From: a virus
Taxonomy: Duplodnaviria; Heunggongvirae; Uroviricota; Caudoviricetes
Virus record (IMG/VR): IMGVR_UViG_2667527666_000008
Strand: one strand, 5' to 3'
Length of the DNA stretch: 33,255 bases
Position numbers and translations under genes: made by a program. Of this stretch, positions 1 through 17,703 are shown in pieces. A model generated the notes under the pieces. It ran no database searches, had not been told where the DNA came from, and saw nothing but the letters and a program-made list of their open reading frames with translations. Each line of letters opens with the position of its first letter. Positions within the stretch are counted from its first letter, which is position 1.

Positions 1-1131
1 TCAAATGACCAGTTTTTTCCACTCCTTACCGCGTACATCGTTGTAAATATCGGTCATTTTTTGATTCGAATGGCCTAGCAAAATTTTGGTATCAACCCCC
101 TGCTCTCTGAACAATCGCTCTGATAAAGATCTCTGCTCATGGAAAGAGGGTGGGGTGCCATTAGCACGCCAGTTGTAATCCACAGAATCCCGGGCTTTTT
201 TAAATGCAACGGTTAATGTTGCTGGCTTAACCATCCCGCCGCGCTTAGCTGTCCCTTTCGCGTGATGGTGGTGCAATAGCCACGGACTAAGAACGCAATC
301 GCGGCAGGATGACACTACATCATCCAGGGTGAGATTTAATTTATCGCAACGCAGAGCCAGAGGGATGGCAATCCGGGTTCCTGTTTTTTGCTGTTCGACA
401 TGAAGATAACCATCCCGGATATCCGAAAATTGCATTTTGCAAATATCTGAAAGGCGCTGGCCTGTCATCAGTGCCAGCAGCATACCGCGCTGTAAAAAGT
501 AACCATTCTTTTCCGCTGCGTTATAAATCATCATCCACTCATCAAAAGTCAGTCGCTGTCTTGATATCCGCACCTGCGGTTTTTTTGCCGATTCTGCAGG
601 GTTAAAGCCTGGCGGGACATCGCCCGTTTGCTGAGCTTCCCGGAAAACATCGATCAGTACTTTCCTGAAAATTTGTCCCATTCTGTTATGTCCTCTGGCC
701 TTGTACTCTTCCAGTACTGATACCACATCTTTTACGGTTATGGCATCTAACGGTCTGGTGCCAAAACGTTCATCAAATACCCTGAGAGGGGCCGCTTTCT
801 GTTTCAGCGTGTTGAGTTTGATCTCGCCGTTTTCATATCTTTCCTGTTGAATTTTTCTGTAATTATTCAGAAAAATGGTAACGGTTGATGAACCGCCGGT
901 ATCACTAATAATTTTCTCCTGCAGACTGAGCATTTGTTCCATTTGCTGCCGGGCAAGACGGCTGTTCGCTTCTGCTGCAATAGTTTCTGCCAGTTTCTGG
1001 TCAATACTGCCGAGACCGTGATTTTTGCCTGTTATGGGATGCCTGTAACGCCAGTAAACTTTGTTATTTCTTTTGTCAAAATACGGAGATAATCCCGGAA
1101 CATCGGTTTTATATTTTCGCGGGCGCGCCAT
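1..1131 (-). CDS. int: Phage integrase, tyrosine recombinase family
   Basis: 376-aa ORF with a typical lambda-family integrase C-terminal catalytic region (R...HxxR...Y context, 'LLGHSNQKMTDIYNDV'); stop codon at window positions 1-3; first gene of the leftward arm. Confidence 0.9.
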   Translation of the reverse strand: MARPRKYKTDVPGLSPYFDKRNNKVYWRYRHPITGKNHGLGSIDQKLAETIAAEANSRLARQQMEQMLSLQEKIISDTGGSSTVTIFLNNYRKIQQERYENGEIKLNTLKQKAAPLRVFDERFGTRPLDAITVKDVVSVLEEYKARGHNRMGQIFRKVLIDVFREAQQTGDVPPGFNPAESAKKPQVRISRQRLTFDEWMMIYNAAEKNGYFLQRGMLLALMTGQRLSDICKMQFSDIRDGYLHVEQQKTGTRIAIPLALRCDKLNLTLDDVVSSCRDCVLSPWLLHHHHAKGTAKRGGMVKPATLTVAFKKARDSVDYNWRANGTPPSFHEQRSLSERLFREQGVDTKILLGHSNQKMTDIYNDVRGKEWKKLVI

Positions 1132-1357
1132 CTTCCAGTATCCTCTTCAAAGCAGGGTGATCTGTGGCGATCACCTCCGGCTTGTTTACCATTCCGACAA
1201 AGCGAGCTTGCGGATCCACTCGCCAGCGTCTTCCAACTTTTTTGGGGAGAGGAAATATCATTCCGGCTTTAGCGTATTTACTTAACGTACTCGGAGTAGG
1301 GACCGGTTCACTGAATTCCTCTTTTGCCCACTCAGTGAGCAGAATAAGTCTTGCCAT
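1109..1357 (-). CDS. xis: Excisionase-like small DNA-binding protein
   Basis: 82-aa ORF immediately upstream of and overlapping the integrase start; basic, with the 'FPLPKKVGRRWRV' pattern seen in Xis/AlpA-type winged-helix proteins. Confidence 0.65.
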   Translation of the reverse strand: MARLILLTEWAKEEFSEPVPTPSTLSKYAKAGMIFPLPKKVGRRWRVDPQARFVGMVNKPEVIATDHPALKRILEDGAPAKI

Positions 1358-1421
1358 GAGCGTCGTTCGCTAATCATGGTCGCCGCCACTATAGCTGGTG
1401 GGCAACGACCGGGGTTGAACA

Positions 1422-3893
1422 TTAAAAATCAGCCTGATTTGGGATCAGTTTTTGCCAGATAGCTGAAACGTATTTTGCCTGGTAACGGGCGTCATCAAGT
1501 GCATTATGGCGCTCACCTTCGAATGGAATAGCCGTTCTGGCATCGAAGTCTATGGCTTTCCCCAGCTCAACGATTGTGCGTACATCGCGATCGTTGTAGT
1601 AACGCCACGGGCAGGGGATCCCCTGCCGTTCGTATGAACGGCGCAAAATCGTGTTGTCGAAGTTGGCTCCATTTCCCCAAACCTGAACAAAAAATTCACC
1701 GGAGTTTTCGTCGATAAATTCCCGCAATTGTAACAGTGCATCATCTAACGGGATTTCATCGGTCATAATGGCAGATTGCGCTTCGCGTGATTGCTTAAGC
1801 CACCATTTAATGGTGTCCCGATCAATGACTCCGCCAGCAGTTTCCAGATCGATAGTCTTACTAAATTCCGGTCCCATATCTCCGGTTTGCGGATCGAAAA
1901 ATATTGCACCTATTGAGATGATCGGGGCATCAGGATTTTTTCCCATGGTTTCAAGGTCGATCATTAGATGGTCACACGTCCTGCTGGTGGATGTGATTTC
2001 TTGATGACCGTTCACCTTAATTGAGTGATCTGCCGTCTCGCCAGTTTCATTATCGCTATCGTGATGCTGATTGCCGCCAGTGTTCTCCTTGTGTGGATGT
2101 TCAGCGCCTTCCATTTCCTCCGGATCATCTTCCTGAACTTCAGGCTGATACTCTTCATCGAATGTTTCCTGGTATGTTGCGTCGCCCATTACCGCGCCAC
2201 AATCAGGGCAGTTGCCGCCGCCGGTCTGACCGCAGGCGGTGCAGACTTTTTCCACTTCCTGTTGCGCCACTGATTCAGGCTGTTTCGTTTCTGGCTCGTT
2301 TTGTAACGCATTTGGGCTGTTTTGTTCCGCTTTCTGGTCGTTCTGTTCCGTTTCTTGCTGGTTCTGGTTCACAGAATCGCGGGTCTGGTTCCCCTTAACC
2401 CATTTCGGATCATTCGGGTCGCTAATCCCTTCAACAAATTCACCACGTGATACTGCAAGCAGTTCATCGGCGTCAGGCTGGCTGATATTGGCTGCCTGCA
2501 TAATTTTGTTTACTTCGTCAGCGGTAACTTTTACTGACCCTGGTTGTGCGGTCGTGTCAGATGCACCAGTATTTTGTTGTGAACCTGAGTATGTACCGTT
2601 TTTGCGGGCGAAATATTCTTCTTTCGTGATTTCAGTAGCCCCAGCAGACAGCGCCTTATCCAGACCAGAAAGTTTGTTTGCGCGACCGTATTTTTCGCCA
2701 TCCTTGTCGGTGAAGAGGAAGTAGAACGGCCCCTCACGTTCTACAGATGGTTCGACTTCCACTTTGCATTCGGTTTTTTCGTTGTCCGGAATTGCCGTTT
2801 CCACTGCATCAGTTTCTGGTACTGGCGACGAGAGAGTATCAGTTGCGCTCTGATTTGTTCCTTCATCTTCAAACACGCCCTTTGTAGTCAGGTATTCAGT
2901 AATGTATTTGTTCAGTGCCACAGGGTCTTTGTGAATGTCGATCGGACGTTCACGGACAAGGCCAAAAATAGTCTGGCGGTCGTAGCGAAGGGCATCAGGC
3001 TGTTTGCGCATTGATGCCGAGATACGCTTCCAGTCTTCGCGGTCGTTGTCGATAACTTCATTTTTTGCCCAGCGATGGATGCTGCCGTCAATGTTTCCGG
3101 CATCCACATCACCAGGCCAGAGAGCGTAGGCCAGTTCGTCATCCAGTGTTTTCCATGTCTGCTTGTATTCGCGATGAATGGCAGCAATGACCGGGTTGAT
3201 TTTTCCTGTTGAATTTTCAGTGTGCTGTTGATTGGCTCTGGCGCGGGCGAGATCAACAACAGACGTGTATTTTCCGGCTTCCTTGCGTTCACCTTCGCGA
3301 CGTTTTTTCCAGATGCGCATCTCTGCCTGAATTTCGGGCCATTTGGCACCAGGCTTACATTTATGCTTAACCCACCCGATGGCATGCAGCTTAAGCTCCG
3401 GATACATGGCGTTAACTTCTGGCATTTTCATCAACGCTTCAACGATATGTCCGTCGAATGTTGCCATGTCTTCCTGCAACAGTTCCTGCGCGCTAATCAC
3501 CATATCAACGGTGATGTTTTCACATGTGTCGAACTTAACCATGACAGCGTTCTGTACTTCAGGGGCCAGCTTGTCAAAAGTGACGTTCATCGGATCTGAT
3601 TCAGTCTCAACCGGGACAAAGGAAGCAGACGCCTCATCCCAGCGGTTTTCCTGCATATATTCAGCATCCCAGGAATCTAGGGCAGGGCGGGGTATACCGG
3701 GTTTATCCTCGCAGACAAGAAATTTATAAGCGCAGTCCTGAGCAGCCGGATAATGTTCCAGGAATTGCCAGTGAAATTTTGCGCGGGCGCGACGTTCATC
3801 ACCGGCTTCAATGGCAGTGGCTACAGCGACTGCACCTTCTTCCTTTATTGCCTGTTCGTCCGGAATGGCGGCGCAAATAAAGACTTTACTCAT
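1422..3893 (-). CDS. Large early protein with C-terminal DEDDh-type 3'-5' exonuclease domain
   Basis: 823-aa ORF; C-terminal ~180 aa carry the DnaQ-like motifs (DLETMG..., W.NG.NFD, H.ALDDARY); central Q/E-rich low-complexity linker and a CxxC-x14-CxxC zinc-ribbon-like motif. Occupies the position of the recombination exonuclease in lambdoid left arms. Confidence 0.6.
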   Translation of the reverse strand: MSKVFICAAIPDEQAIKEEGAVAVATAIEAGDERRARAKFHWQFLEHYPAAQDCAYKFLVCEDKPGIPRPALDSWDAEYMQENRWDEASASFVPVETESDPMNVTFDKLAPEVQNAVMVKFDTCENITVDMVISAQELLQEDMATFDGHIVEALMKMPEVNAMYPELKLHAIGWVKHKCKPGAKWPEIQAEMRIWKKRREGERKEAGKYTSVVDLARARANQQHTENSTGKINPVIAAIHREYKQTWKTLDDELAYALWPGDVDAGNIDGSIHRWAKNEVIDNDREDWKRISASMRKQPDALRYDRQTIFGLVRERPIDIHKDPVALNKYITEYLTTKGVFEDEGTNQSATDTLSSPVPETDAVETAIPDNEKTECKVEVEPSVEREGPFYFLFTDKDGEKYGRANKLSGLDKALSAGATEITKEEYFARKNGTYSGSQQNTGASDTTAQPGSVKVTADEVNKIMQAANISQPDADELLAVSRGEFVEGISDPNDPKWVKGNQTRDSVNQNQQETEQNDQKAEQNSPNALQNEPETKQPESVAQQEVEKVCTACGQTGGGNCPDCGAVMGDATYQETFDEEYQPEVQEDDPEEMEGAEHPHKENTGGNQHHDSDNETGETADHSIKVNGHQEITSTSRTCDHLMIDLETMGKNPDAPIISIGAIFFDPQTGDMGPEFSKTIDLETAGGVIDRDTIKWWLKQSREAQSAIMTDEIPLDDALLQLREFIDENSGEFFVQVWGNGANFDNTILRRSYERQGIPCPWRYYNDRDVRTIVELGKAIDFDARTAIPFEGERHNALDDARYQAKYVSAIWQKLIPNQADF

Positions 3894-3985
3894 TTTGTTT
3901 TACCTCATTACAGATTTAAGGGTGAACAAATCCCTGCCATTGCTGGCATATAAGAATGAAACCGGATATTTATTACGGAACTGTT

Positions 3986-4177
3986 TTAAAGACCTGCCGG
4001 GATTTCGTTATTATCCTGGTGAATAACTTTATCGACCGGGTAACAGTTACCGGGAATTTTCTGTTCGGTTGCTGCAGTCACACACTCCTGCATTGTCCTG
4101 TGAACACTGACTGCAATATCAACTGGCTCTCCGGAAACAAGAAAAACTGTCAGAACAAGTGCAAATGCTGTATTCAT
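3986..4177 (-). CDS. Hypothetical small protein with N-terminal hydrophobic segment
   Basis: 63-aa ORF from the internal ATG, which has an AAGGA Shine-Dalgarno 8 nt upstream; N-terminal hydrophobic stretch (MNTAFALVLTVFLVSG) suggests a signal peptide or membrane anchor. Confidence 0.35.
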   Translation of the reverse strand: MNTAFALVLTVFLVSGEPVDIAVSVHRTMQECVTAATEQKIPGNCYPVDKVIHQDNNEIPAGL

Positions 4178-4362
4178 TGTGCACATCCTTTTTGTATCGG
4201 ACGTAAACGGGCCAGCATTGAAAGAATGCATATTTTATTTAATAACTCCCGTTCGTGTTTTCTCTTGTTAATGGCATCTTCAGTAAATACAGGGTTACTG
4301 ATAGTGACACCAATTTCAAAACAACCTTCAGACGTATTAACGTTTGGTAATAACGTTTCCAT
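4174..4362 (-). CDS. Hypothetical protein (62 aa)
   Basis: Small ORF in the leftward early region; support is position and an open frame only. Confidence 0.2.
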   Translation of the reverse strand: METLLPNVNTSEGCFEIGVTISNPVFTEDAINKRKHERELLNKICILSMLARLRPIQKGCAQ

Positions 4363-4932
4363 TATCGCGTCCTCAACAATGAATTTTGTGATGCAGTGCC
4401 TGGTGCCTCCAGGTGACGTTAACCAGTTAACAATTAACGCCGGGTTAGTTGATGCTCGTTACGCCCGTAAAATACCGCCTTACTGCTTTAACTGTTCCGC
4501 GTGCGCATAGCCGCATTCACCGCATCACAAAATTCACTTTAAAAAGGGCGGCAGAGCAGTCACGGAGTAAAACTGATACCGCCAAATGTCACCAGAAAAT
4601 TGATAACAGAGGGCGTTGTAGCGGGGTTGTCACTTAAGCGTATGGTCAACCTGACAACCCGGTGCATTTTCTGGAGCAATGGAGGAAACCCCAGCCATAC
4701 TTACCGCCGCGCCATTTCGCGGAGTGCCACAACCGGAAGCGCACGGTCGAACTAAATTTAACGACACCGTACAGAGAGACCAATTTCGCCGTGCGCTTTC
4801 GCGTTATGCCCTGACTTTTCAGGGACATATCCTTTCAGTAAACTGTCAGTGCCGGATGCTCACCCGTGTCCGGCGCACGCACTCCACCTGACCAGTGGAG
4901 AACTCCTTAATTACCAACCCTCAGGAGGGTGA

Positions 4933-5212
4933 AATGGATAAAAAGCAAATTGAGGCCCTGCAATCTATTATTGAAGAACAAGATGAAGCTATCAGGATTC
5001 TTTCATATCGCACTGATATGATACTAAATATGCTTTCTGCATTAACGGCTGCGCTTGGTGGTACAAAAACAAACGTATACCGCGAAGTTGTTATTCAACA
5101 GATAGATAAATTTGAAAAAACCATACCAGGTATTAATGCTCATCTTGCAGAACAAGAGAAAGACCATGCTCTTATGGCAATTTCTTCAGTAGCTCTCCCG
5201 AAAGTTGAGTAG
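4933..5212 (+). CDS. Hypothetical protein (AT-rich cargo ORF)
   Basis: Strong AGGAGG Shine-Dalgarno 6 nt before the ATG at 4933; 93-aa product predicted helical; AT-rich relative to flanks. Confidence 0.45.
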
Positions 5213-5573
5213 TTTTAATTGTTGTTTTGAAATAATCACTGCTTTCACATTTGAGTGATTTCATGGCAATCCAAATGCGGGCCTCTGTGCCTGCATTTGG
5301 TTCCAGTTGCTGTAGACGTTTTGCGTCTTCCAAAAGTAAGGCGATAATGTGTTTCAGCTTCTCATCATTTGCTTGATTCTTGTTTTCAGGCGAATTCTGT
5401 CCGCCGAATAGGCGCTTCTCTTCATACAGACCTATAAAGGCACGACGCACGTTACCGGATATAGTATCGATGGTTTCCTTTTCTACAGTACTCAGGTCAA
5501 GAGTCGCCAGTTGAGAGCGAACCACATTCGCTGCCATTTCCTGGAATGGCATTGGTAAATCTTTAAATTCCAT
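5172..5573 (-). CDS. Hypothetical protein (133 aa)
   Basis: ORF convergent with, and overlapping the 3' end of, the 4933..5212 gene; AT-rich; no recognisable motif. Confidence 0.45.
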   Translation of the reverse strand: MEFKDLPMPFQEMAANVVRSQLATLDLSTVEKETIDTISGNVRRAFIGLYEEKRLFGGQNSPENKNQANDEKLKHIIALLLEDAKRLQQLEPNAGTEARIWIAMKSLKCESSDYFKTTIKTTQLSGELLKKLP

Positions 5574-5595
5574 TATTAGCCTCGTTGGTTAGCTA

Positions 5596-5814
5596 TTAAC
5601 GTGGGTATGTAACCATTCTGGCAATGCTTAATGCCGCTGCTTTTTCCAGCCTGGTGATATCCTGCTCCAGAGCGGACAGATTTTCAGCCTGCTTAGTCCT
5701 GGCTTCATTGGCCCATTTCAGATCCTGCACTGCATTAATTTTCTGGCGCATCCACTCATAAAGTTCATCATCGGTATAGTCTGGCGCGATGATGACGGGT
5801 TCTCGTTTCTGCAT
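5596..5814 (-). CDS. Hypothetical early protein (72 aa)
   Basis: Small ORF packed tightly in the leftward early operon. Confidence 0.4.
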   Translation of the reverse strand: MQKREPVIIAPDYTDDELYEWMRQKINAVQDLKWANEARTKQAENLSALEQDITRLEKAAALSIARMVTYPR

Positions 5815-5843
5815 ACTGATTCCTCGCGGTGCTGTTTCGCTTA

Positions 5844-5972
5844 TCAGCCGTTAGATTTTCCCGAACTGGAAAGCGCCTGTTTAAATTCACTGAAGCTGAG
5901 AGCTTCTTCGCCTTCGGCAAGACCATCGAAGTATTCTTCGTAAGCCTTTTCCATGATTGTGTCGAAATCCAT
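5844..5972 (-). CDS. Hypothetical small acidic protein (42 aa)
   Basis: Found by manual translation (below the ORF-track size cutoff): MDFDTIMEKAYEEYFDGLAEGEEALSFSEFKQALSSSGKSNG, with a GGTGAGTGA ribosome-binding site; overlaps the upstream gene stop. Confidence 0.3.
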   Translation of the reverse strand: MDFDTIMEKAYEEYFDGLAEGEEALSFSEFKQALSSSGKSNG

Positions 5973-5973
5973 A

Positions 5974-6129
5974 TCACTCACCTGAGTTTCTTTCCAGCCA
6001 GCGACGGGCACCATTTTCGGTTTTAAACGTTTTGCTTTTGGTATACGTCATCGCGGTGAATGTGCCGTCCTGGTTGGGAAACACGCCGTACACCAGAGAT
6101 TCGTTGTTGCCAAGCTCGATAGTATCCAT
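5974..6129 (-). CDS. Hypothetical small protein (51 aa)
   Basis: Found by manual translation: MDTIELGNNESLVYGVFPNQDGTFTAMTYTKSKTFKTENGARRWLERNSGE; first gene of the leftward early operon. Confidence 0.3.
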   Translation of the reverse strand: MDTIELGNNESLVYGVFPNQDGTFTAMTYTKSKTFKTENGARRWLERNSGE

Positions 6130-6325
6130 GCTGACCTCATTTCCCCTTAACGCCGGGTGGCGGAACTAAAACCTACAGCGCCGTGCTGTTCTTGATAGAA
6201 ATATTAGTAACGCGGATATTTTAAGTCAACAGTATGGCGTATGATATTTTTGATTTGGTAACTATGTAAATGTTTTTTCAAGGGAAAAATATTAGTTATA
6301 CAGCTGATTTGCAGAAGTTATGGCA

Positions 6326-6357
6326 CAAAAAAACCGACTAAGACGTCGGTTTTTTTG
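6326..6357. terminator. Bidirectional intrinsic terminator
   Basis: AAAAAAA-CCGAC-taagac-GTCGG-TTTTTTT: a 5-bp GC stem flanked by an A-run and a T-run, immediately downstream of the repressor gene. Confidence 0.6.
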
Positions 6358-6382
6358 TTGTGGATGGGGTAGTGAGCGGTGG

Positions 6383-6844
6383 CTACTGGTTACGTTTCTT
6401 TAGTGCCAGCATGTTCTCGAAGGCTTCCTCGTAGAGCTTGTTTAGTCCACGTAGCTGGTTAAGGAGTTTGGCTTTTTCTGACGCAGGTAGAATCTCGAAG
6501 AGGTTAAGTAACTCTGCCTGTTCTTCATTGACCAGCCTCCATCCTTTGCCTGAAAAGTTATCATCATAAGTATCTGATGATCTTACATAATTCATTAAGT
6601 CTTTAAGGTCTTCTCGAATGTCCTCTGGTTTTACCTTTAACAGAGCCGCAAATTTTAGCGCAGCGTCGGTATTTACCGGTATCTTGCCGTTCAGATACTG
6701 GCTAACGGTGCCTTGAGATTCGAATCCCAACAACTCAGCCGCCAGCTCTTGAGTCAGCTTCAGCTCTTTTTTTCTTGCATTCCATGCGGCTTTTAAATTC
6801 TTGCTCGCTTCTGGAGTTGCAATCACTTCGCGTGTTTTTTTCAT
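6383..6844 (-). CDS. Prophage repressor, XRE-family HTH (RacR/CI-like, no peptidase domain)
   Basis: 153-aa ORF with an N-terminal helix-turn-helix (QELAAELLGFESQGTVSQYLNG); divergent from a Cro-like gene; no Shine-Dalgarno before the ATG, as for leaderless lambda cI. Confidence 0.75.
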   Translation of the reverse strand: MKKTREVIATPEASKNLKAAWNARKKELKLTQELAAELLGFESQGTVSQYLNGKIPVNTDAALKFAALLKVKPEDIREDLKDLMNYVRSSDTYDDNFSGKGWRLVNEEQAELLNLFEILPASEKAKLLNQLRGLNKLYEEAFENMLALKKRNQ

Positions 6845-6945
6845 ACATAGAGTTTATTTGTTTTACCAATATTATCAAAGATAGTCTGGCTATTGATCTT
6901 TAAAATTAGCGGGGCTAATATTTGCTCGAGGCATAACGTAGAAGG
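6845..6945. promoter_or_regulatory. Divergent immunity promoter/operator region
   Basis: 101-bp AT-rich gap between divergent repressor and Cro-like genes; contains a perfect palindrome ATTAGC-ggg-GCTAAT (6905..6919) and an imperfect inverted repeat TCAAAGAT...ATCTTTAA. Confidence 0.45.
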
Positions 6946-7227
6946 TTGGCTATGAACTTAAGAGACTATTTAAAAGAGAAACATATCACCCAGCTACAGT
7001 TTGGGAAGCTAACGGGTTTATCTCAGGTGCATGTAAGTCGAGTGCTGGGGGGCTATGAAAGATTCAGCCCTGAAAAAGCATTACGTGTTGCTGAAGTAAC
7101 GAATTTCGAGGTTACACCTCATGAACTCCGGCCTGATATTTACCCGAATCCAACCGACGGCTTACCTGTTGGATTCAAGGCTAACACACCAAATGCATCG
7201 GAGTTGATTCATGAAAATCAGGCATGA
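6946..7227 (+). CDS. Cro-like HTH regulator (YdaS-like)
   Basis: 93-aa ORF with an HTH (ITQLQFGKLTGLSQVHVSRVL); first gene of the rightward operon, opposite the repressor. Confidence 0.65.
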   Translation: MAMNLRDYLKEKHITQLQFGKLTGLSQVHVSRVLGGYERFSPEKALRVAEVTNFEVTPHELRPDIYPNPTDGLPVGFKANTPNASELIHENQA

Positions 7228-7636
7228 GCACATCCGCATGGCGATGAATGCCTGGGCGCATCCGGACGGTGAAAAAGTTCCGGCAGCTGAAATAACCCGG
7301 GCTTATTTTGAGCTTGGTATGACGTTCCCGGAATTATATGACGACAGCCATCCGGAAGCCCTGGCTCGCAATACCCAGAAAATTTTCCGCTGGGTGGAGA
7401 AAGACACTCCTGATGCGGTTAAAAAAATTCAGGCGTTGTTACCAGCGATCGAAAAAGCAATGCCGCCTCTGCTGGTGGCCCGAATGCGCAGCCACAGTTC
7501 AGCTTATTTTCGGGAGCTGGTGGAGACGCGGGAACGACTGGTGAGAGACGCTGATGATTTTGTCGCAGTGGCGATCGCTGGTTTCAACCAGATGAATCGT
7601 GGTGGCCCTGCAGGAAATATTGTGGCTGTGCATTGA
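7211..7636 (+). CDS. YdaT-like protein (CII-position regulator)
   Basis: 141-aa ORF overlapping the Cro-like gene stop; size, position and N-terminal 'MKIRHEHI' resemble Rac-type YdaT family proteins as recalled. Confidence 0.5.
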   Translation: MKIRHEHIRMAMNAWAHPDGEKVPAAEITRAYFELGMTFPELYDDSHPEALARNTQKIFRWVEKDTPDAVKKIQALLPAIEKAMPPLLVARMRSHSSAYFRELVETRERLVRDADDFVAVAIAGFNQMNRGGPAGNIVAVH

Positions 7637-7707
7637 CTCGCAATATTCATACCGGATCACTTCCGGCAATTTGTGAGTAAAAAGATTCGGTATCAGAAGA
7701 GGTGAGT

Positions 7708-8748
7708 ATGGCTAACGCCTGGCTCAGATTATGGCATGACATGCCAAATGACCCTAAGTGGCGAACAATTGCCAGGGTGTCAGGGCAGCCAATTGCAACA
7801 GTGATGGCAGTGTATATCCACCTTCTGGTGAGCGCGTCACGAAATGTCACGACATGTCACGGCGTGTCACTACGTGGTCACATTGATGTCACGACGGAAG
7901 ATTTAGCAAGTGCGCTTGATGTGACGGAAGAAGTAATTGATTCAATTTTACAGGCAATGCAGGGGCGGGTACTTGATGGAGATTTAATCACCGGATGGGA
8001 AAAACGCCAGGTACTGAAAGAGGACAATGGCAACGTTTCACAAACCGCGAAATCCCCGGCAGAGCGCAAGAGAGCGCAGCGCGAGAGGGAAAAATTACGA
8101 AAACAGAATGAGGGGTGTCACGACGAGTCACGCATATGTCACGACATGTCACGACGAGTCACGACAGATAAAGATACAGATAAAGAATTAAACCCCACAC
8201 ATAACGCGCACGTGCGCGAGAGTGCTCCGACCAGTGAGTCGAGTGGTACGCCGTTGCAGGCAGCAGAACCTGCATCCCTGGATGGACTGAGCGAACCCAT
8301 CGGGAAATTTCCGATGGTCGATGACTGGCATCCGTCGCCGGATTTTCGACGACGGGCTGCGTTGTGGGGGATGGCTTTGCCGGAGCCGGAATTTACACCT
8401 GCTGAACTTGCCGCTTTCCGGGACTACTGGGCAGCGGAGGGGAAAGTTTTCACGCAGGTTCAGTGGGAGCAGAAATTCGCCCGTCACGTAAATCACGTCA
8501 GGGCGCAGGTTAAGCCAGTCAGCAAGGGGGTAAACCATGCAGCAGCACCAGGTGGCACCGCATCACGGGCAGTTCAGGAAATTCGGGCAGCACGTGAGCA
8601 GTGGGAACGTGAAAACGGATTTATCAGCGACGGAAACGGTCTGGAAGCTGTGGGAACTCATGGGGGAGGTTTATTCGAACCGCTGGACCCAGAAGAACGG
8701 GGCCGCACCTTCGAAGCTCTGGATTGCACAGATTGGCGCGATGACTGA
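7708..8748 (+). CDS. Replication initiator / replisome organizer (O-like, DnaT-like C-terminal region)
   Basis: ATG at 7708 with a GAGGTGA ribosome-binding site; conserved N-terminus 'ANAWLRLWHDMPNDPKWRTIA'; iteron arrays lie inside the coding sequence as in lambda O; the true 3' end is uncertain because the P-like gene overlaps. Confidence 0.6.
   Translation: MANAWLRLWHDMPNDPKWRTIARVSGQPIATVMAVYIHLLVSASRNVTTCHGVSLRGHIDVTTEDLASALDVTEEVIDSILQAMQGRVLDGDLITGWEKRQVLKEDNGNVSQTAKSPAERKRAQREREKLRKQNEGCHDESRICHDMSRRVTTDKDTDKELNPTHNAHVRESAPTSESSGTPLQAAEPASLDGLSEPIGKFPMVDDWHPSPDFRRRAALWGMALPEPEFTPAELAAFRDYWAAEGKVFTQVQWEQKFARHVNHVRAQVKPVSKGVNHAAAPGGTASRAVQEIRAAREQWERENGFISDGNGLEAVGTHGGGLFEPLDPEERGRTFEALDCTDWRDD
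7836..7892. repeat. Iteron array 1 (six GTCAC-core repeats at 10-11 bp spacing)
   Basis: GTCAC cores at 7836, 7846, 7856, 7866, 7877 and 7888, mostly as (A/G)TGTCACGAC; helical-turn periodicity. Confidence 0.6.
8117..8190. repeat. Iteron array 2 plus AT-rich direct repeat (putative origin)
   Basis: GTCAC cores at 8117, 8127, 8138, 8148 and 8158 (10-11 bp spacing), immediately followed by AGATAAAG-ATAC-AGATAAAG-AATTAAA. Confidence 0.6.
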
Positions 8749-9202
8749 GCAGCAAATCCGACAGGTCTGCCGCCAGTGCATGGACCGCTGCCGGGCGGGT
8801 GAAACATGGCCTCCGGACCTGGCTGAGTTTGTGGCGCTGATTTCAGAAAGCGGGGCCAATCCATTTGGCCTGACGGTGGATGCTGTGATGGAGGAGTACC
8901 GCCGCTGGCGTGATGAGTCCTGGCGATATGACGGAAGCGACAAATATCCGTGGCCTCAGCCTGTGCTGTACCACATCTGCCTCGAAATGCGTACCAGAGG
9001 GATTGAGCGCCAGATGACGCAGGGTGAGTTAAAACGACTTGCGGAACGGCAACTGACGAAATGGGCAAAGCATGTTGGTAACGGGATGAGTGTTCCGCCA
9101 GTGCGACGACAACTGGAAGGGGCGAAACACCCGCAAGGGCCAACGCCAATTGAACGGCTGAAACAGGAATACGAACGCCGGAAGGCAGCTGGTTTTATTT
9201 GA
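8537..9202 (+). CDS. Replication protein P-like (helicase loader)
   Basis: Resembles lambda P as recalled (WPPDLAEFVAL... ~ PSPGQFVAWCREE; MTQGELKRLAERQL ~ LTDAELRRKAADEL); AAGGGGG ribosome-binding site before the ATG at 8537; overlaps the last ~210 bp of the O-like ORF in another frame; alternative start at 8741. Confidence 0.7.
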   Translation: MQQHQVAPHHGQFRKFGQHVSSGNVKTDLSATETVWKLWELMGEVYSNRWTQKNGAAPSKLWIAQIGAMTEQQIRQVCRQCMDRCRAGETWPPDLAEFVALISESGANPFGLTVDAVMEEYRRWRDESWRYDGSDKYPWPQPVLYHICLEMRTRGIERQMTQGELKRLAERQLTKWAKHVGNGMSVPPVRRQLEGAKHPQGPTPIERLKQEYERRKAAGFI

Positions 9203-9235
9203 ATCTGAGAAACGATTTTGTCGGAGGAAATTTTA

Positions 9236-9562
9236 ATGGAAACCGTATTTGACGCACTGAAAGCAATGGGAAAAGCCACATCGGTAGAACTGGCCGCGCG
9301 ACTTGATATCAGTCGTGAAGAGGTTCTCAACGAGCTGTGGGAACTCAAAAGAAAAGGCGTCGTTGATAAAACTGGTCACACCTGGTTTCTGGCTGGCGAA
9401 GGTGAATCCCGGGTAACCGAAGAGCGGCCAGTAAAATCTGAAGCACAGGATATGCTGACCGGGGAGGTCGAACAAAAAGTTACCGCAGACATGATGATTG
9501 AGTTTATCGGTCAGGATGGGGCTAAAACGTGTGAGGAACTGGCGGGTAAGTTCGGTGTCTGA
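9236..9562 (+). CDS. Small winged-helix-like protein, 3' end replaced by the IS junction
   Basis: GGAGGA ribosome-binding site before the ATG at 9236; the stop codon TGA is formed by the first bases of the IS left inverted repeat (TGAACC...). Confidence 0.5.
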   Translation: METVFDALKAMGKATSVELAARLDISREEVLNELWELKRKGVVDKTGHTWFLAGEGESRVTEERPVKSEAQDMLTGEVEQKVTADMMIEFIGQDGAKTCEELAGKFGV

Positions 9563-9601
9563 ACCGCCCCGGGTTTCCTGGAGAGTGTTTTATCTGTGAA
9601 C

Positions 9602-10492
9602 TCAGGCTGCCAGATCATCGTTTCCGATGGAAGCATAATAAGCTTTTTCTGCTTCTGCCGGAGGAGTATGGCCCAGCCTTTCCAGCAATCGTCGATTGTT
9701 ATACCAGTCCACCCACGTGAGTGTGGCCAGTTCCACTTCTGCACGGTTTTTCCAGCTCTTACGGTGTATTACCTCCGCTTTGTAAAGACCATTGATGCTC
9801 TCCGCCATCGCGTTGTCATACGAGTCGCCTGTACTTCCTGTTGATGCCAGTAATCCGGCTTCCTTAAGCCGCTGTGTGTAGGCCAGCGATACATACTGAG
9901 AACCTTTATCACTGTGATGGACCGTGCCGGACGGTCGACGGGCCCATAACGCCTGCTCCAGTGCATCCAGCACGAATGTCGTTTCCATGGACGATGAGAC
10001 CCGCCACCCCACGATGTATCCGGCAAACACATCAATGATGAACGCCACATAGACGAAGCCCCGCCATGTGCTGACGTAAGTAAAATCAGCCACCCACAGC
10101 TGGTCAGGTCGTTCTGCCACGAACTGACGGTTTACGCGGTCGCCTGCGGCAACGGCTTTCCGGCTGATGGTCGTACGGACCTTTTTACCCCGGAGAACAC
10201 CGGCAAGTCCCATAACCGCCATGAGACGTGCCACAGTGCATCTGGCCACTCTGATACCTTCCCGTAACAACTGACGCCAGACTTTACGCACACCGTATAC
10301 CTTGTGATTTTCATCGTATACGCGCTGTATCTCTTTCTTCAGCCAGTCATCGCGCTGCGCACGGGCACTGCGTTTATCCGGATGATGTCGCTGTTGCTGA
10401 CAGTGGTAATACGTTGACGGGGCAATATGCAGTTCGCTGCATAGCGGTCCGACCCCGTACTGCTCACGCAGCTTATCCAGCAGTGGCATCAT
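9602..10492 (-). CDS. IS3-family transposase OrfB (DDE integrase core)
   Basis: 296-aa ORF with DDE catalytic signatures (WVADFTYV..., HSDKGSQY..., [15 protein letters not shown]); overlaps OrfA by 4 bp. Confidence 0.9.
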
Positions 10493-10815
10493 TTTTTCCA
10501 GAGGCGGTCGAACTCCGCCTTCGCAAAATAAGCGGAAGCCTGGCGAAGGATATCGTTACTGCGGCGCAGTTCACGATTTTCACGTTCCAGCTCTTTCAGA
10601 CGCTGACGTTCAGCGGTGGTGAGCCCGCCATCACCGCCCCCGGTATCCCGCTCATGCTGGCGAACCCAGACACGCAGAGTCTCCGGCGTACAGCCAATCT
10701 TTGGAGCAATGGAACAAATTGTCGCCCATTGTGAGTCATATTCGCTCTGACTTTCCAGAACCATACGGACTGCCCGTTGACGGACTTCGGGGGAAAAACG
10801 AGTATTTTTAGTCAT
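10489..10815 (-). CDS. IS3-family transposase OrfA (HTH)
   Basis: 108-aa ORF with an HTH and leucine-zipper-like C-terminus ([18 protein letters not shown]). Confidence 0.9.
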
Positions 10816-10958
10816 CCTGTTTACCTCTTTCTCAGGAAGTTTAGTCTCCAGGATTCCCGGGGCGGTTCAGTACTCGCAAGGTTGCTTCCACGCTGGCGGT
10901 GGTAACCGCAACGGGGCGGCTGGCACGCGTTAATCAGAACGGTAAATTTCGTTACTGC

Positions 10959-11315
10959 ATGCCGGGCGATAATTTACCAGCAGAGCCGAAAGCCGCGCTG
11001 GTAACGGAAAGTGATGGTAAGGCCTTTCCTCAGCCAGCAGGTGCTGCGTTACCAGTCCGGGAAGCCGCAACACAGGAAGAAATTAAAACAGAAACTGTGG
11101 CGGACATTGTGCAGCCGTTGCCATCGTTTACCGAAACGCAAGCAGATGAGCTGATTTTTCCGTCCCTTCGCAGGGCAAACCTGGCGCTGCGCAGGGCGAA
11201 AAGTGATGTTCAGAAGTGGGAGCGAGTCTGCGCCGCGCTGCGGGAGCTGAACAAGCACCGGGATATTGTTCGACAGATTACTGATTCTTCCCGCCGTGTT
11301 GTATCGGAAAAGTGA
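10959..11315 (+). CDS. Hypothetical protein
   Basis: Open frame extends upstream to the IS junction (GTG at 10899); the ATG at 10959 is taken as the start; no recognisable domain. Confidence 0.3.
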
Positions 11316-11330
11316 TTGCCGGAGGCGCTT

Positions 11331-11756
11331 ATGGCAAAAGTATTTACACAAGAAGAGCGGGAAAAAATTAAAGGGCAGGTTGTTGAACTTGTACGTCTGA
11401 GCGGTCGCGAGACGTTGCGGCAACTGGAAGCCAAGACAGGTGCGACAAGATATCTGATGAGTGTTCTCGCCAGAGAGCTGGTTGCCAGTGGCGATGTATA
11501 CAACTCTGGTTACGGGTTATTCCCGTCTGAACAGGCGCGTAAGGACTGGCAAAATGCTCGCAAAAAACTCTCAAGGGCAAAGGTGAAGAAACCTGCAGTG
11601 GTTGATCCGGACCTTATCTGGTCGTTACCAGACGGCGAAATACGCCGCTACGACAGGCGCCTGAATATAATCTGTCGCGAGTGCCGGAAGAGCGAAGCTA
11701 TGCAGCGTGTACTGGCATTTTATCAAGGAAATGTTAGGTATTTTAGACGTTACTAG
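11331..11756 (+). CDS. Hypothetical protein (141 aa)
   Basis: GGAGG ribosome-binding site before the ATG at 11331; C-terminal Cys/Arg-rich segment (ICRECRKSEAMQRV). Confidence 0.45.
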   Translation: MAKVFTQEEREKIKGQVVELVRLSGRETLRQLEAKTGATRYLMSVLARELVASGDVYNSGYGLFPSEQARKDWQNARKKLSRAKVKKPAVVDPDLIWSLPDGEIRRYDRRLNIICRECRKSEAMQRVLAFYQGNVRYFRRY

Positions 11757-11909
11757 ATTAAAGAGCATTAGTTCAGATGTGAATTGACATTTTCATGGCG
11801 CAGGGTAGAGCCAGCGTGGTTGTCCGCTTTGCGTCAAAACCAGATATTACCAGATTTAGACATATATTCCCGATAGCCCTGCTCTGATGCTACACTCTGT
11901 GCTATTTTC

Positions 11910-12596
11910 ATGACCCCAATAAAAATATTTATGACTATTGCTGATTTCAAACGGCCTAAATTGGAGCTCCCAAACGGGGCAAACAAACTACTACTGCACT
12001 CTTGCTGTGCTCCATGTTCCGGTGAAGTGATGGAGGCGCTTCAGGCCTCGGGAATCGACTACACCATCTTTTTCTACAACCCGAACATTCATCCTCAGAA
12101 AGAGTATTTAATTCGTAAGGATGAAAATATTCGCTTTGCTGAACAACACGGCGTGCCGTTTATCGATGCTGATTACGACACCGACAACTGGTTTGAACGT
12201 GCCAAAGGAATGGAATGGGAGCCTGAGAGGGGGATCCGTTGTACCATGTGTTTTGACATGCGTTTTGAGCGGACAGCGTTGTACGCTGCTGAAAATGGTT
12301 TCAGTGTGATCAGCAGTTCACTGGGCATTTCACGCTGGAAAAATATGCAGCAGGTTAACGAGTGTGGGCGGCGAGCTGTTGCGCATTATCCGGGTATGGT
12401 GTACTGGGATTATAACTGGCGCAAGCAGGGCGGCTCGTCCCGTATGATTGAAATCAGCAAGCGCGAAAAATTCTATCAGCAGGAATATTGTGGCTGTGTG
12501 TATTCTCTGCGCGATACCAATCTACACCGCAAATCTCAGGGACGCCCTCTTATCAAAATTGGCCAACTCCACTACGGAAAAGAAGAGAAGGAGTGA
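11910..12596 (+). CDS. QueH-like protein (DUF208, epoxyqueuosine reductase family)
   Basis: Family-diagnostic motifs '[11 protein letters not shown]' near the N-terminus and '[11 protein letters not shown]' near the C-terminus, plus internal '[10 protein letters not shown]'; alternative start at 11931; preceded by a promoter-like AT-rich region. Confidence 0.65.
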
Positions 12597-16612: not shown

Positions 16613-16972
16613 ATGCTCATAGATTTGGTTTTACCTTACCCGCCGACGGTGAACACTTACTGGCGACGCCGTGGCAGCACATATTTTATCTCGGAGGAGG
16701 GAAAGCGTTATCGCCGGGCTGTGGCGCTTATTGTTCGCCAGCAGCGGCTGAAATTAAGCCTGTCCGGAAGGCTGGCGATAAAGGTGATTGCAGAGCCACC
16801 GGATAAGCGCCGCCGCGACCTGGACAATATCCTGAAGGCACCACTGGATGCGCTGACGCATGCCGGACTACTTATAGACGACGAGCAGTTTGATGAAATC
16901 AATATTGTGCGCGGTCAGCTCGTTCCTGGTGGGCGGCTGGGGATAAAAATCACAGAACTGGAGTGCGCATGA
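16613..16972 (+). CDS. rusA: Crossover junction endodeoxyribonuclease RusA (Holliday junction resolvase)
   Basis: 119-aa product with the RusA signature 'PDKRRRDLDNILKAPLDALTHAGLLIDDEQ'; AAGAGG ribosome-binding site. Confidence 0.85.
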   Translation: MLIDLVLPYPPTVNTYWRRRGSTYFISEEGKRYRRAVALIVRQQRLKLSLSGRLAIKVIAEPPDKRRRDLDNILKAPLDALTHAGLLIDDEQFDEINIVRGQLVPGGRLGIKITELECA

Positions 16973-17658
16973 ATAACCAGTATTTACAGTTTGTGCGTGA
17001 GCAGCTCATTATCGCCACCGCTGATTTGAGTGGGGCAACAAAAGGTCAGCTTGAAGCCTGGCAGGAGAATGCCATGTTCGATACAGGGCGTTACAGGCGT
17101 AAAAAAATCCGGTACCGCGATGAAGTGACCGGAAAAATGATAACGCGGGATAATCCACCAATCCCGGGAAAACAATCGCTGGCGAAGGGGACGTCAATTC
17201 CTCTGGTCAGTCAGGTTGCTTTTTCTACATCATCATGGCGGCGGGCTGTTTTGTCTCTTGAAGAACATCATAAAGCCTGGTTGTTGTGGTGTTACAGCGG
17301 AAATACTTGCTGGGAGTATCAGATCGCGATAACGCAGTGGGCATGGACAGAATTTAAGACTCACTCTGGTACCAGGAAAATTGCAGGGAAGACACAGGAA
17401 CGCCTGAAAAAATTAATCTGGCTGGCTGCACAGGATGTCAGGAGATGGGTTATAGGACATGATATCTACCAGCAACAGGAGCTTGCCCGTCTGTGTGGGA
17501 TTAAGCCTGACAACTGGAGCCACAATTATGTGAGCTACTGGCGTGAAATACTCGATATTTTTATGAACCTCGATACCGAATCTCTGATTTGCACTGTGAA
17601 AAGGAGATCTCAACAAAAAGCGGCATTTTTGCAGCGAGATATTGCAAAAGTCAATTAG
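16969..17658 (+). CDS. Putative late-gene antiterminator (Q-like)
   Basis: 229-aa ORF overlapping the rusA stop (ATGA), followed immediately by a promoter-like AT-rich stretch and a strong terminator; assignment rests on position and size, not on a recognised motif. Confidence 0.45.
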   Translation: MNNQYLQFVREQLIIATADLSGATKGQLEAWQENAMFDTGRYRRKKIRYRDEVTGKMITRDNPPIPGKQSLAKGTSIPLVSQVAFSTSSWRRAVLSLEEHHKAWLLWCYSGNTCWEYQIAITQWAWTEFKTHSGTRKIAGKTQERLKKLIWLAAQDVRRWVIGHDIYQQQELARLCGIKPDNWSHNYVSYWREILDIFMNLDTESLICTVKRRSQQKAAFLQRDIAKVN

Positions 17659-17703
17659 ATAGCATATATTTTATGTAAATGTGATATATTGCTGTAAAGT
17701 GTA

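Follow-up and report, generated by a model that had tools for sequence, protein, structure and literature searches.

The window analysed here, a stretch of 33,255 nucleotides from a tailed virus, carries an insertion sequence among the early genes of a lambdoid prophage, and the locus raises two questions: which gene the element has interrupted, and why the bases on its two sides do not form the expected target duplication. On the first question, we are highly confident that an intact IS629 was copied into the DUF1627 gene of an ompW-type lambdoid prophage and disrupted it, and that the insertion is recent and has been inherited. In the course of events that we propose, a full-length IS629, using copy-out/paste-in transposition, would have entered codon 109 of the DUF1627/YdaW gene of a lambdoid prophage at the ompW site. 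The 5' fragment would then end at the terminal TGA of the IS and give a protein of 108 aa in which the first winged-helix domain is retained, while the 147 codons on the 3' side would be left without start or promoter. The junctions produced would be non-canonical, with no 3-4-bp duplication and with one target base either missing or shared with the IS tip. On the second question, that of the junction, the possible answers are more evenly spread.

The element is a complete IS629 isoform of the IS3 family on the minus strand, at positions 9560-10869, assigned by its sequence identity to annotated copies. It starts with TGAACCGCCCCGGG at 9560 and the reverse complement finishes at 10869, which gives a length of exactly 1310 bp. 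These two ends form the longest inverted repeat that the repeat finder returned for the region, and the 14-nt tip occurs just twice in the 33-kb window, at the two IS ends and nowhere else. The right inverted repeat (IRR, orfB-distal; 9560-9584) opens with the TGA that is the stop of the truncated host gene, and the left inverted repeat (IRL, orfA-proximal; 10845-10869) was located by repeat search. The arms of these 25-nt repeats read TGAACCGCCCCGGG(TT/AA)TCCTGGAGA and agree at 23 of 25 positions when aligned in the element's orientation, and the outermost bases, TGAACC...GGTTCA, are ends of the 5'-TG...CA-3' type. Both transposase frames are intact and lie on the minus strand, overlapping at 10489-10492. 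The first, orfA (10489-10815; 108 aa), has the HTH_Tnp_1 domain (PF01527, E = 7e-13), and the second, orfB (9602-10492; 296 aa), in the -1 frame relative to orfA, has HTH_21 and the rve DDE integrase core (PF00665, E = 8e-28), its Pfam matches being PF13276, PF00665 and PF13683. A programmed -1 frameshift region, also on the minus strand (10418-10534), consists of an A6 slippery run followed by an ALIL pseudoknot, for which Rfam gives a full-length match (RF01497, 120.2 bits against a threshold of 50). In our reconstruction, a -1 shift on the A6 run fuses orfA and orfB into a 404-aa OrfAB, and identical copies carry a 'programmed frameshift' annotation in RefSeq. The ends, the Pfam and Rfam matches and the identity to known copies bear out the initial annotation in describing a 1310-bp IS3-family element with intact inverted repeats and both transposase ORFs; the span that it had given, 9557-10872, does contain the element and also takes in the flanking triplets, which lie outside the IS proper.

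Several complete E. coli genomes contain the same 1310 bp at 100% identity, and the element was matched at some level in 4264 of 5426 E. coli genomes. Its identity is 99.2-99.5% to copies in phage records that depositors labelled 'insertion sequence: IS3 family IS629' (99.5% for LC567824.1), and 96.0-96.3% to O157:H7 copies annotated as IS629 or IS1203v. The name IS629 is thus taken from depositors' annotations of 99.5%- and 96%-identical copies rather than from the ISfinder reference. By the ISfinder rule, copies whose nucleotide identity to a named element is 95% or higher count as isoforms of it. Compared with these annotated copies as a check on its place in the IS3 family, the element fits IS629 in length, inverted repeats and sequence. 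It shares with IS629 (isoforms IS1203, IS1203v and IS3411; IS3 group) the 1310 bp, the TG...CA ends, the 25-nt imperfect repeats, the orfA/orfB overlap, the -1 frameshift on an A-run, the ALIL pseudoknot and a preference for prophage DNA. Of the traits that define the IS3 family and IS629, the length, the ends, the two overlapping frames, the frameshift signal and the identity of at least 95% are all present. The exception is the target duplication of 3-4 bp, which is absent at the window's site along with one target base, and this is a trait of the event and not of the element. Transposition through a circular copy-out/paste-in intermediate is putative here and is taken from family membership alone. 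The copy is probably still active, judging from its intact frames and its identity to many other copies. The closest match to the IS in the phage database (99.9%) is at 731-2040 of AF017626.1, the int region of phage 21, where the annotation covering it is that of the phage 21 integrase gene from strain EC38, so that the isoform again lies in prophage DNA.

What the element interrupted is best approached from the ORF upstream of it, which begins with ATG at 9236, codes as far as 9559 and stops, in frame, at the TGA of the IS (9560-9562). It had already been noticed that the first bases of the IS supply this stop, which proved correct, and it had been supposed from it that a small winged-helix gene ends naturally where the IS begins, with only the last residues of its product replaced. 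The stop at the IS and the winged-helix fold of the N-terminal domain do agree with such a reading. The comparison with related prophages that lack the insertion, from which the intact gene could be reconstructed as had been suggested, refutes it. In near-identical prophages of complete genomes, the uninterrupted homologue is a 771-nt gene encoding a 256-aa 'DUF1627 domain-containing protein' (WP_000450702.1), and every uninterrupted copy runs 148 codons beyond the point where the upstream ORF stops, so that homologues do not naturally end here. When one A is put between the two flanks, the intact 771-nt gene of strain 118UI is restored at 771 of 771 nt. In addition, the Pfam DUF1627 profile (PF07789) is split by the IS, its positions 1-18 matching the last 18 residues of the upstream frame and its positions 20-155 the downstream ORF, which shows that the end of the upstream frame at the IS is not a natural one. 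We therefore give the natural-end reading virtually no chance.

The gene disrupted by IS629 is accordingly present in two parts on the plus strand. The 5' fragment of this DUF1627/YdaW-family gene (9236-9562), recognised by its ORF, by Pfam and PHROG matches and by its structure model, comprises codons 1-108 and the stop supplied by the IS, and its product has 108 residues with no foreign tail added. The 3' remnant (10870-11315), recognised by Pfam and by the restoration of the intact gene from the two flanks and the A, begins with codon 109 (AGT) minus its first base and holds codons 110-256, in frame from 10872. It scores 292 bits on PF07789 (gathering cut-off 28.1), and its 147 codons at 10872-11315 have no start codon or promoter of their own. 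PHROG 630 is matched over 1-252 (of 253) by the intact protein and over residues 1-108 by the 5' fragment. By these comparisons, the insertion of IS629 inside codon 109 of a 256-codon gene is a simple gene disruption, and the 108-aa winged-helix fragment stays translatable. Of the earlier description of a small winged-helix gene hit at its 3' end, the N-terminal winged helix stands, whereas the gene has 256 codons and the IS follows codon 108. Nor has the C-terminus been replaced, since the product is truncated without added residues and the missing 147 codons survive on the other side of the IS; the downstream remnant, which had been read as a separate gene, turned out by Pfam and by the empty-site match to be the 3' part of the DUF1627 gene. 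Annotation should join the ORFs on either side of the IS into one disrupted DUF1627/YdaW gene, in place of a small regulator next to an independent early gene.

In its reconstructed form, the gene is a full-length member of the YdaW/DUF1627 family (PF07789) of Rac-like and lambdoid phages, the name YdaW being that used in Rac-like phage records, and it sits after the replication genes, as in phages Rac-SA53 and PhiR5_2. Members of the family are whole, whereas the gene in the window is split in two. Our literature search found no functional study of DUF1627. The gene is also broken in another prophage. In GCA_053208465.1 (locus L013, ~1430-1450), a 1-bp deletion that changes GCTTCCACGCTGG to GCTTCCAGCTGG splits it into ORFs of 119 and 118 aa, and in three draft assemblies (L014, L015 and L018) runs of N cross this DUF1627 region; the N run of L014 spans the window's insertion point and might hide an unresolved IS. 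The 118-aa downstream product is called also where there is no IS, after the 1-bp frameshift of L013 and at the N runs of the three drafts.

The part of the protein that remains in frame has a recognisable fold. In a single-sequence AF2 model of the 5' fragment, residues 1-52 adopt winged-helix topology, with pLDDT of 91-96 for residues 1-50 and the elements in the order H1-S1-H2-H3-S2-S3 (H4-11, E13-15, H16-23, H27-39, E43-46 and E49-52). Foldseek retrieved the winged helices of Zalpha, MarR, Csa3 and IclR, at an rmsd of 0.9-1.7 A over ~50 residues and with E-values of 0.005-0.04. At the level of sequence the Pfam HTH matches of the 5' fragment are below threshold, and the intact protein, searched against solved structures, had marginal matches only (MntR, E = 0.0095; ADAR1 Zalpha, E = 0.07). 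As modelled, the N-terminal domain of the interrupted protein is a winged helix by its fold. A second HTH-like stretch, at residues ~83-137, has weak MarR and Ren-like PHROG matches and a marginal Zalpha match, and it is this stretch that the IS cuts.

The junction itself is the unusual part of the locus. The triplets flanking the IS, GTC (9557-9559) and GTA (10870-10872), are not a duplication. The empty site, GGTGTC-A-GTACTC (GGTGTCAGTACTC), is found in five loci without an IS at this position, diverged prophages included, and the occupied site in the window reads GGTGTC|TGAACC...GGTTCA|GTACTC. The insertion added a net 1309 bp with no base duplicated, and the remark that the flanks are not a perfect target duplication holds when set against this empty site. 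Read against it, one target A is missing or, put differently, serves also as the terminal A of the IS. Such a junction could be an artefact of assembly or sequencing, or its flanks could have been brought together from separate locations by recombination between distant IS629 copies, given that IS copies often misassemble and that recombination between copies is a standard cause of unmatched flanks. The left junction is present in six further assemblies (L007-L012), two of which have single-base differences inside the IS, and the right junction in five (L017 and L019-L022), the sources being NCBI isolates together with ENA, JGI and Logan gut metagenomes. Identical junctions on both sides in independent assemblies and metagenomes show that the junction is not an assembly artefact. 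In every empty site the flanks are neighbours with a single A between them, and this adjacency excludes recombination between distant IS copies. Altogether, we judge an origin by artefact or distant recombination to be highly improbable. The absence of a duplication is, moreover, common for IS629: the element duplicates 3-4 bp, and of 47 sites in O157:H7 genomes just 21 have a matching duplication, while it is missing at the other 26 (PMC3271280).

The assemblies also bear on the history of the insertion. Neither flank differs at any base from uninterrupted copies, which shows the insertion by IS629 to be recent, as does the 99.97% identity of positions 1-20219 to the 118UI prophage apart from the IS. 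Positions 6236-12562 of the window are identical to scaffold KQ087962.1 of GCA_001030635.1, and the shared junctions indicate that the insertion is inherited in a lineage that has been sampled repeatedly, from isolates and from human gut metagenomes. The same junction was absent from all 5,426 complete E. coli genomes searched, none of which has an IS at this site. The top 'full-length' matches of a 4.5-kb query carry the IS at other positions and hence do not have the same junction.

Related prophages at the ompW site (MS 196-1, OkiPb01684, 25-06685 and 118UI) carry the same IS, 99.9-100% identical where compared, in the early region or elsewhere. These copies are at the 3' end of ydaS (L001, 502-1811; 3-bp duplication AAC), just upstream of queH (L003, 3178-4487; TAC), at codon ~46 of DUF1627 (L004, 1873-3182; CTG) and, in 118UI, between a tRNA-Arg and the esterase gene (L005, 30909-32218; AGG), so that one of them breaks the same DUF1627 gene. 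They differ from the window's copy in position and in having clean 3-bp duplications. On these sequences, IS629 has repeatedly hit the early region in this prophage family. The same tendency is known from O157:H7, where IS629 is mostly in prophages, with 62% of its sites there (PMC3271280).

Two routes to a junction without duplication deserve consideration. In the first, a canonical insertion with a 3-bp duplication was followed by a secondary event at the IRL end that removed the duplication. Either a GTC duplication was made and the 4 bp GTCA beside the IRL were then lost, or a second copy in the same orientation entered 4 bp away, giving one duplication of GTC and one of GTA, and recombination between the two IS then reduced the tandem pair to a single element. 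The two-insertion version yields the observed flanks exactly, GTC to the left and GTA to the right, with one A lost. The four copies elsewhere in related prophages, all with clean 3-bp duplications, suggest that the canonical reaction is the norm, and the absence of a matching duplication from more than half of the O157:H7 sites (PMC3271280) is also consistent with a two-step origin. On the other hand, the route requires two rare events within 4 bp, no tandem pair or GTC-duplication allele was seen in any locus examined, and no complete genome has the IS at this site. The primary papers on IS911, another member of the IS3 family, reportedly describe targeted insertion beside a resident IS end, and the junction expected from such insertion is said to be one without staggered-cut repair. 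An IS911-like insertion beside a resident end makes the two-insertion version less improbable. Overall, we put the chance of a two-step origin somewhat below even.

In the second route, a single step sufficed: the target CGGTGTCA, which resembles the IRL tip CGGTTCA, was used as a surrogate end in a targeted insertion of the IS911 type, resolved by host functions. The sequence CGGTGTCA (window 9552-9559 and the lost A) is one edit from CGGTTCA, in the same orientation and directly abutting the IRR, which is satisfied at just 1.0% of positions in the reconstructed prophage. The target TCA also coincides with the terminal TCA of the IS. In the sister prophage of 118UI, the IS629 site qualifies as well, with CGGATTCA followed by GG, 2 nt from the IRR, although the insertion at this tip-like target produced a normal AGG duplication; its empty site corresponds to window 20207-20219. 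Tip-likeness was also scanned in species-representative genomes, where 28 IRR ends were recovered and 19 unique flanks among them entered the count. Not one of these 19 further IRR flanks is tip-like, which brings the total to 2 of 24, in a test devised once the data were known. When the corresponding IRL ends were sought with a tolerant search, the lengths were inconsistent (1292-1356 bp), and duplication calls from those loci were set aside. The one-step route remains a possibility that we hold tentatively, as something short of probable. That IS911 undergoes targeted insertion is mentioned in a review of the IS6 family that cites the primary papers for it (PMC7986276), and this mention favours the two-step and the one-step route alike.

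A more specific claim would be that the junction without duplication is the natural footprint of IS911-type 'targeted' insertion by IS629, with CGGTGTCA as surrogate end. The window's site is like IS911 targeted insertion in its tip-like target, in abutting the opposite IS end and in lacking a duplication. It differs in that the likeness is one of resemblance alone, found at 2 of 24 sites and post hoc, and in that the mechanism is known from IS911 and not from IS629. We consider this claim unlikely. If it were true, the tip-like target in 118UI would point to a real and previously unnoticed preference of IS629 for tip-like sequences.

The consequences of the insertion depend on where the disrupted gene lies in the prophage. 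Positions 1-20219 of the window, leaving the IS aside, are 99.97% identical to the prophage beside ompW in E. coli strain 118UI. The gene order starts with integrase, excisionase, exonuclease, dicB, ydfC, ydfB, repressor, YdaS and YdaT, continues with a DnaT-like replication protein, P, DUF1627, DUF977, QueH, hokD, DUF968, RusA and Q, and ends with a Ser/Thr kinase, a PP2C phosphatase, three tRNAs and a SASA-family esterase, before the lysis and terminase genes. The IS is within the early rightward block, past the replication genes and ~6 kb before Q, with its transposase genes antisense to the block. Its placement between the replication module and the downstream early genes is as first described: it lies just 3' of the DnaT-like O analogue and P, the last replication-module gene before the IS being the replication protein P homologue (8741-9202, plus strand; PF06992; coordinates transferred from the 118UI annotation). 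The first intact gene downstream is DUF977 (11331-11756, plus strand), which has its own Shine-Dalgarno sequence, GGAGG, and matches PHROG 142, 'Ren-like exclusion protein', with E = 1.5e-46; residues 84-137 of DUF1627 match the same PHROG weakly. The neighbours DUF1627 (9236-11315) and DUF977 may have a winged-helix module in common and sit where lambda has ren.

Several genes further along the block are of interest in their own right. Among the early genes, window 11931-12596 encodes epoxyqueuosine reductase QueH, a tRNA-modification enzyme, and a hokD-type toxin gene follows it, by its position in the 118UI prophage. Window 16963-19309 holds antiterminator Q, with a Ser/Thr protein kinase gene (17730-18569) directly after it; the frame of the kinase overlaps by 4 bp that of a PP2C phosphatase (18566-19309). 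Three tRNAs follow at 19796-20045, one with a CAT anticodon (Met according to ARAGORN, Ile according to RefSeq), Arg-TCG and Arg-TCT, and a SASA-family esterase lies ~1 kb past them (21021-22874). Stx phages have tRNAs and a SASA-family esterase arranged in this way around stx. The gap of 20046-21020 is too short for stx genes, and none is annotated there in the 118UI prophage. Beyond ~20.2 kb, the near-identity of 99.97% to the 118UI prophage gives way to patches of 85-96% identity with unaligned gaps between them (window 20207-33255), and by this alignment the late region is mosaic relative to the near-identical early region.

A translation stop followed by long untranslated RNA classically favours Rho-dependent polarity. 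We infer it to be plausible that 1.3 kb of untranslated, antisense IS lowers expression of DUF977, QueH and ultimately Q, and that it could impair induction of the prophage; any polarity would hit DUF977 first, a gene that keeps its own ribosome-binding site. A consensus scan found no promoter-like sites in 9000-11900, so a hybrid outward promoter is not supported. In the same interval, three terminator-like sites were found against 3.0 expected from shuffled sequence, with none convincing in the IS on the plus strand, an outcome that speaks neither for nor against polarity.

Taken as a whole, both the element and the event are of a known kind, an ordinary IS629 with its documented habit of accumulating in prophages (PMC3271280), and the finding matters little beyond annotation. 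The only unusual detail, the absent duplication, is a small mechanistic curiosity with ample precedent. The insertion is also a convenient lineage marker, found in 0 of 5,426 complete E. coli genomes yet present in several draft assemblies and gut metagenomes. For the prophage family, it is another case of IS629 accumulating in early regions, where the element may add to prophage decay by coming between the replication genes and both Q and the early genes downstream.
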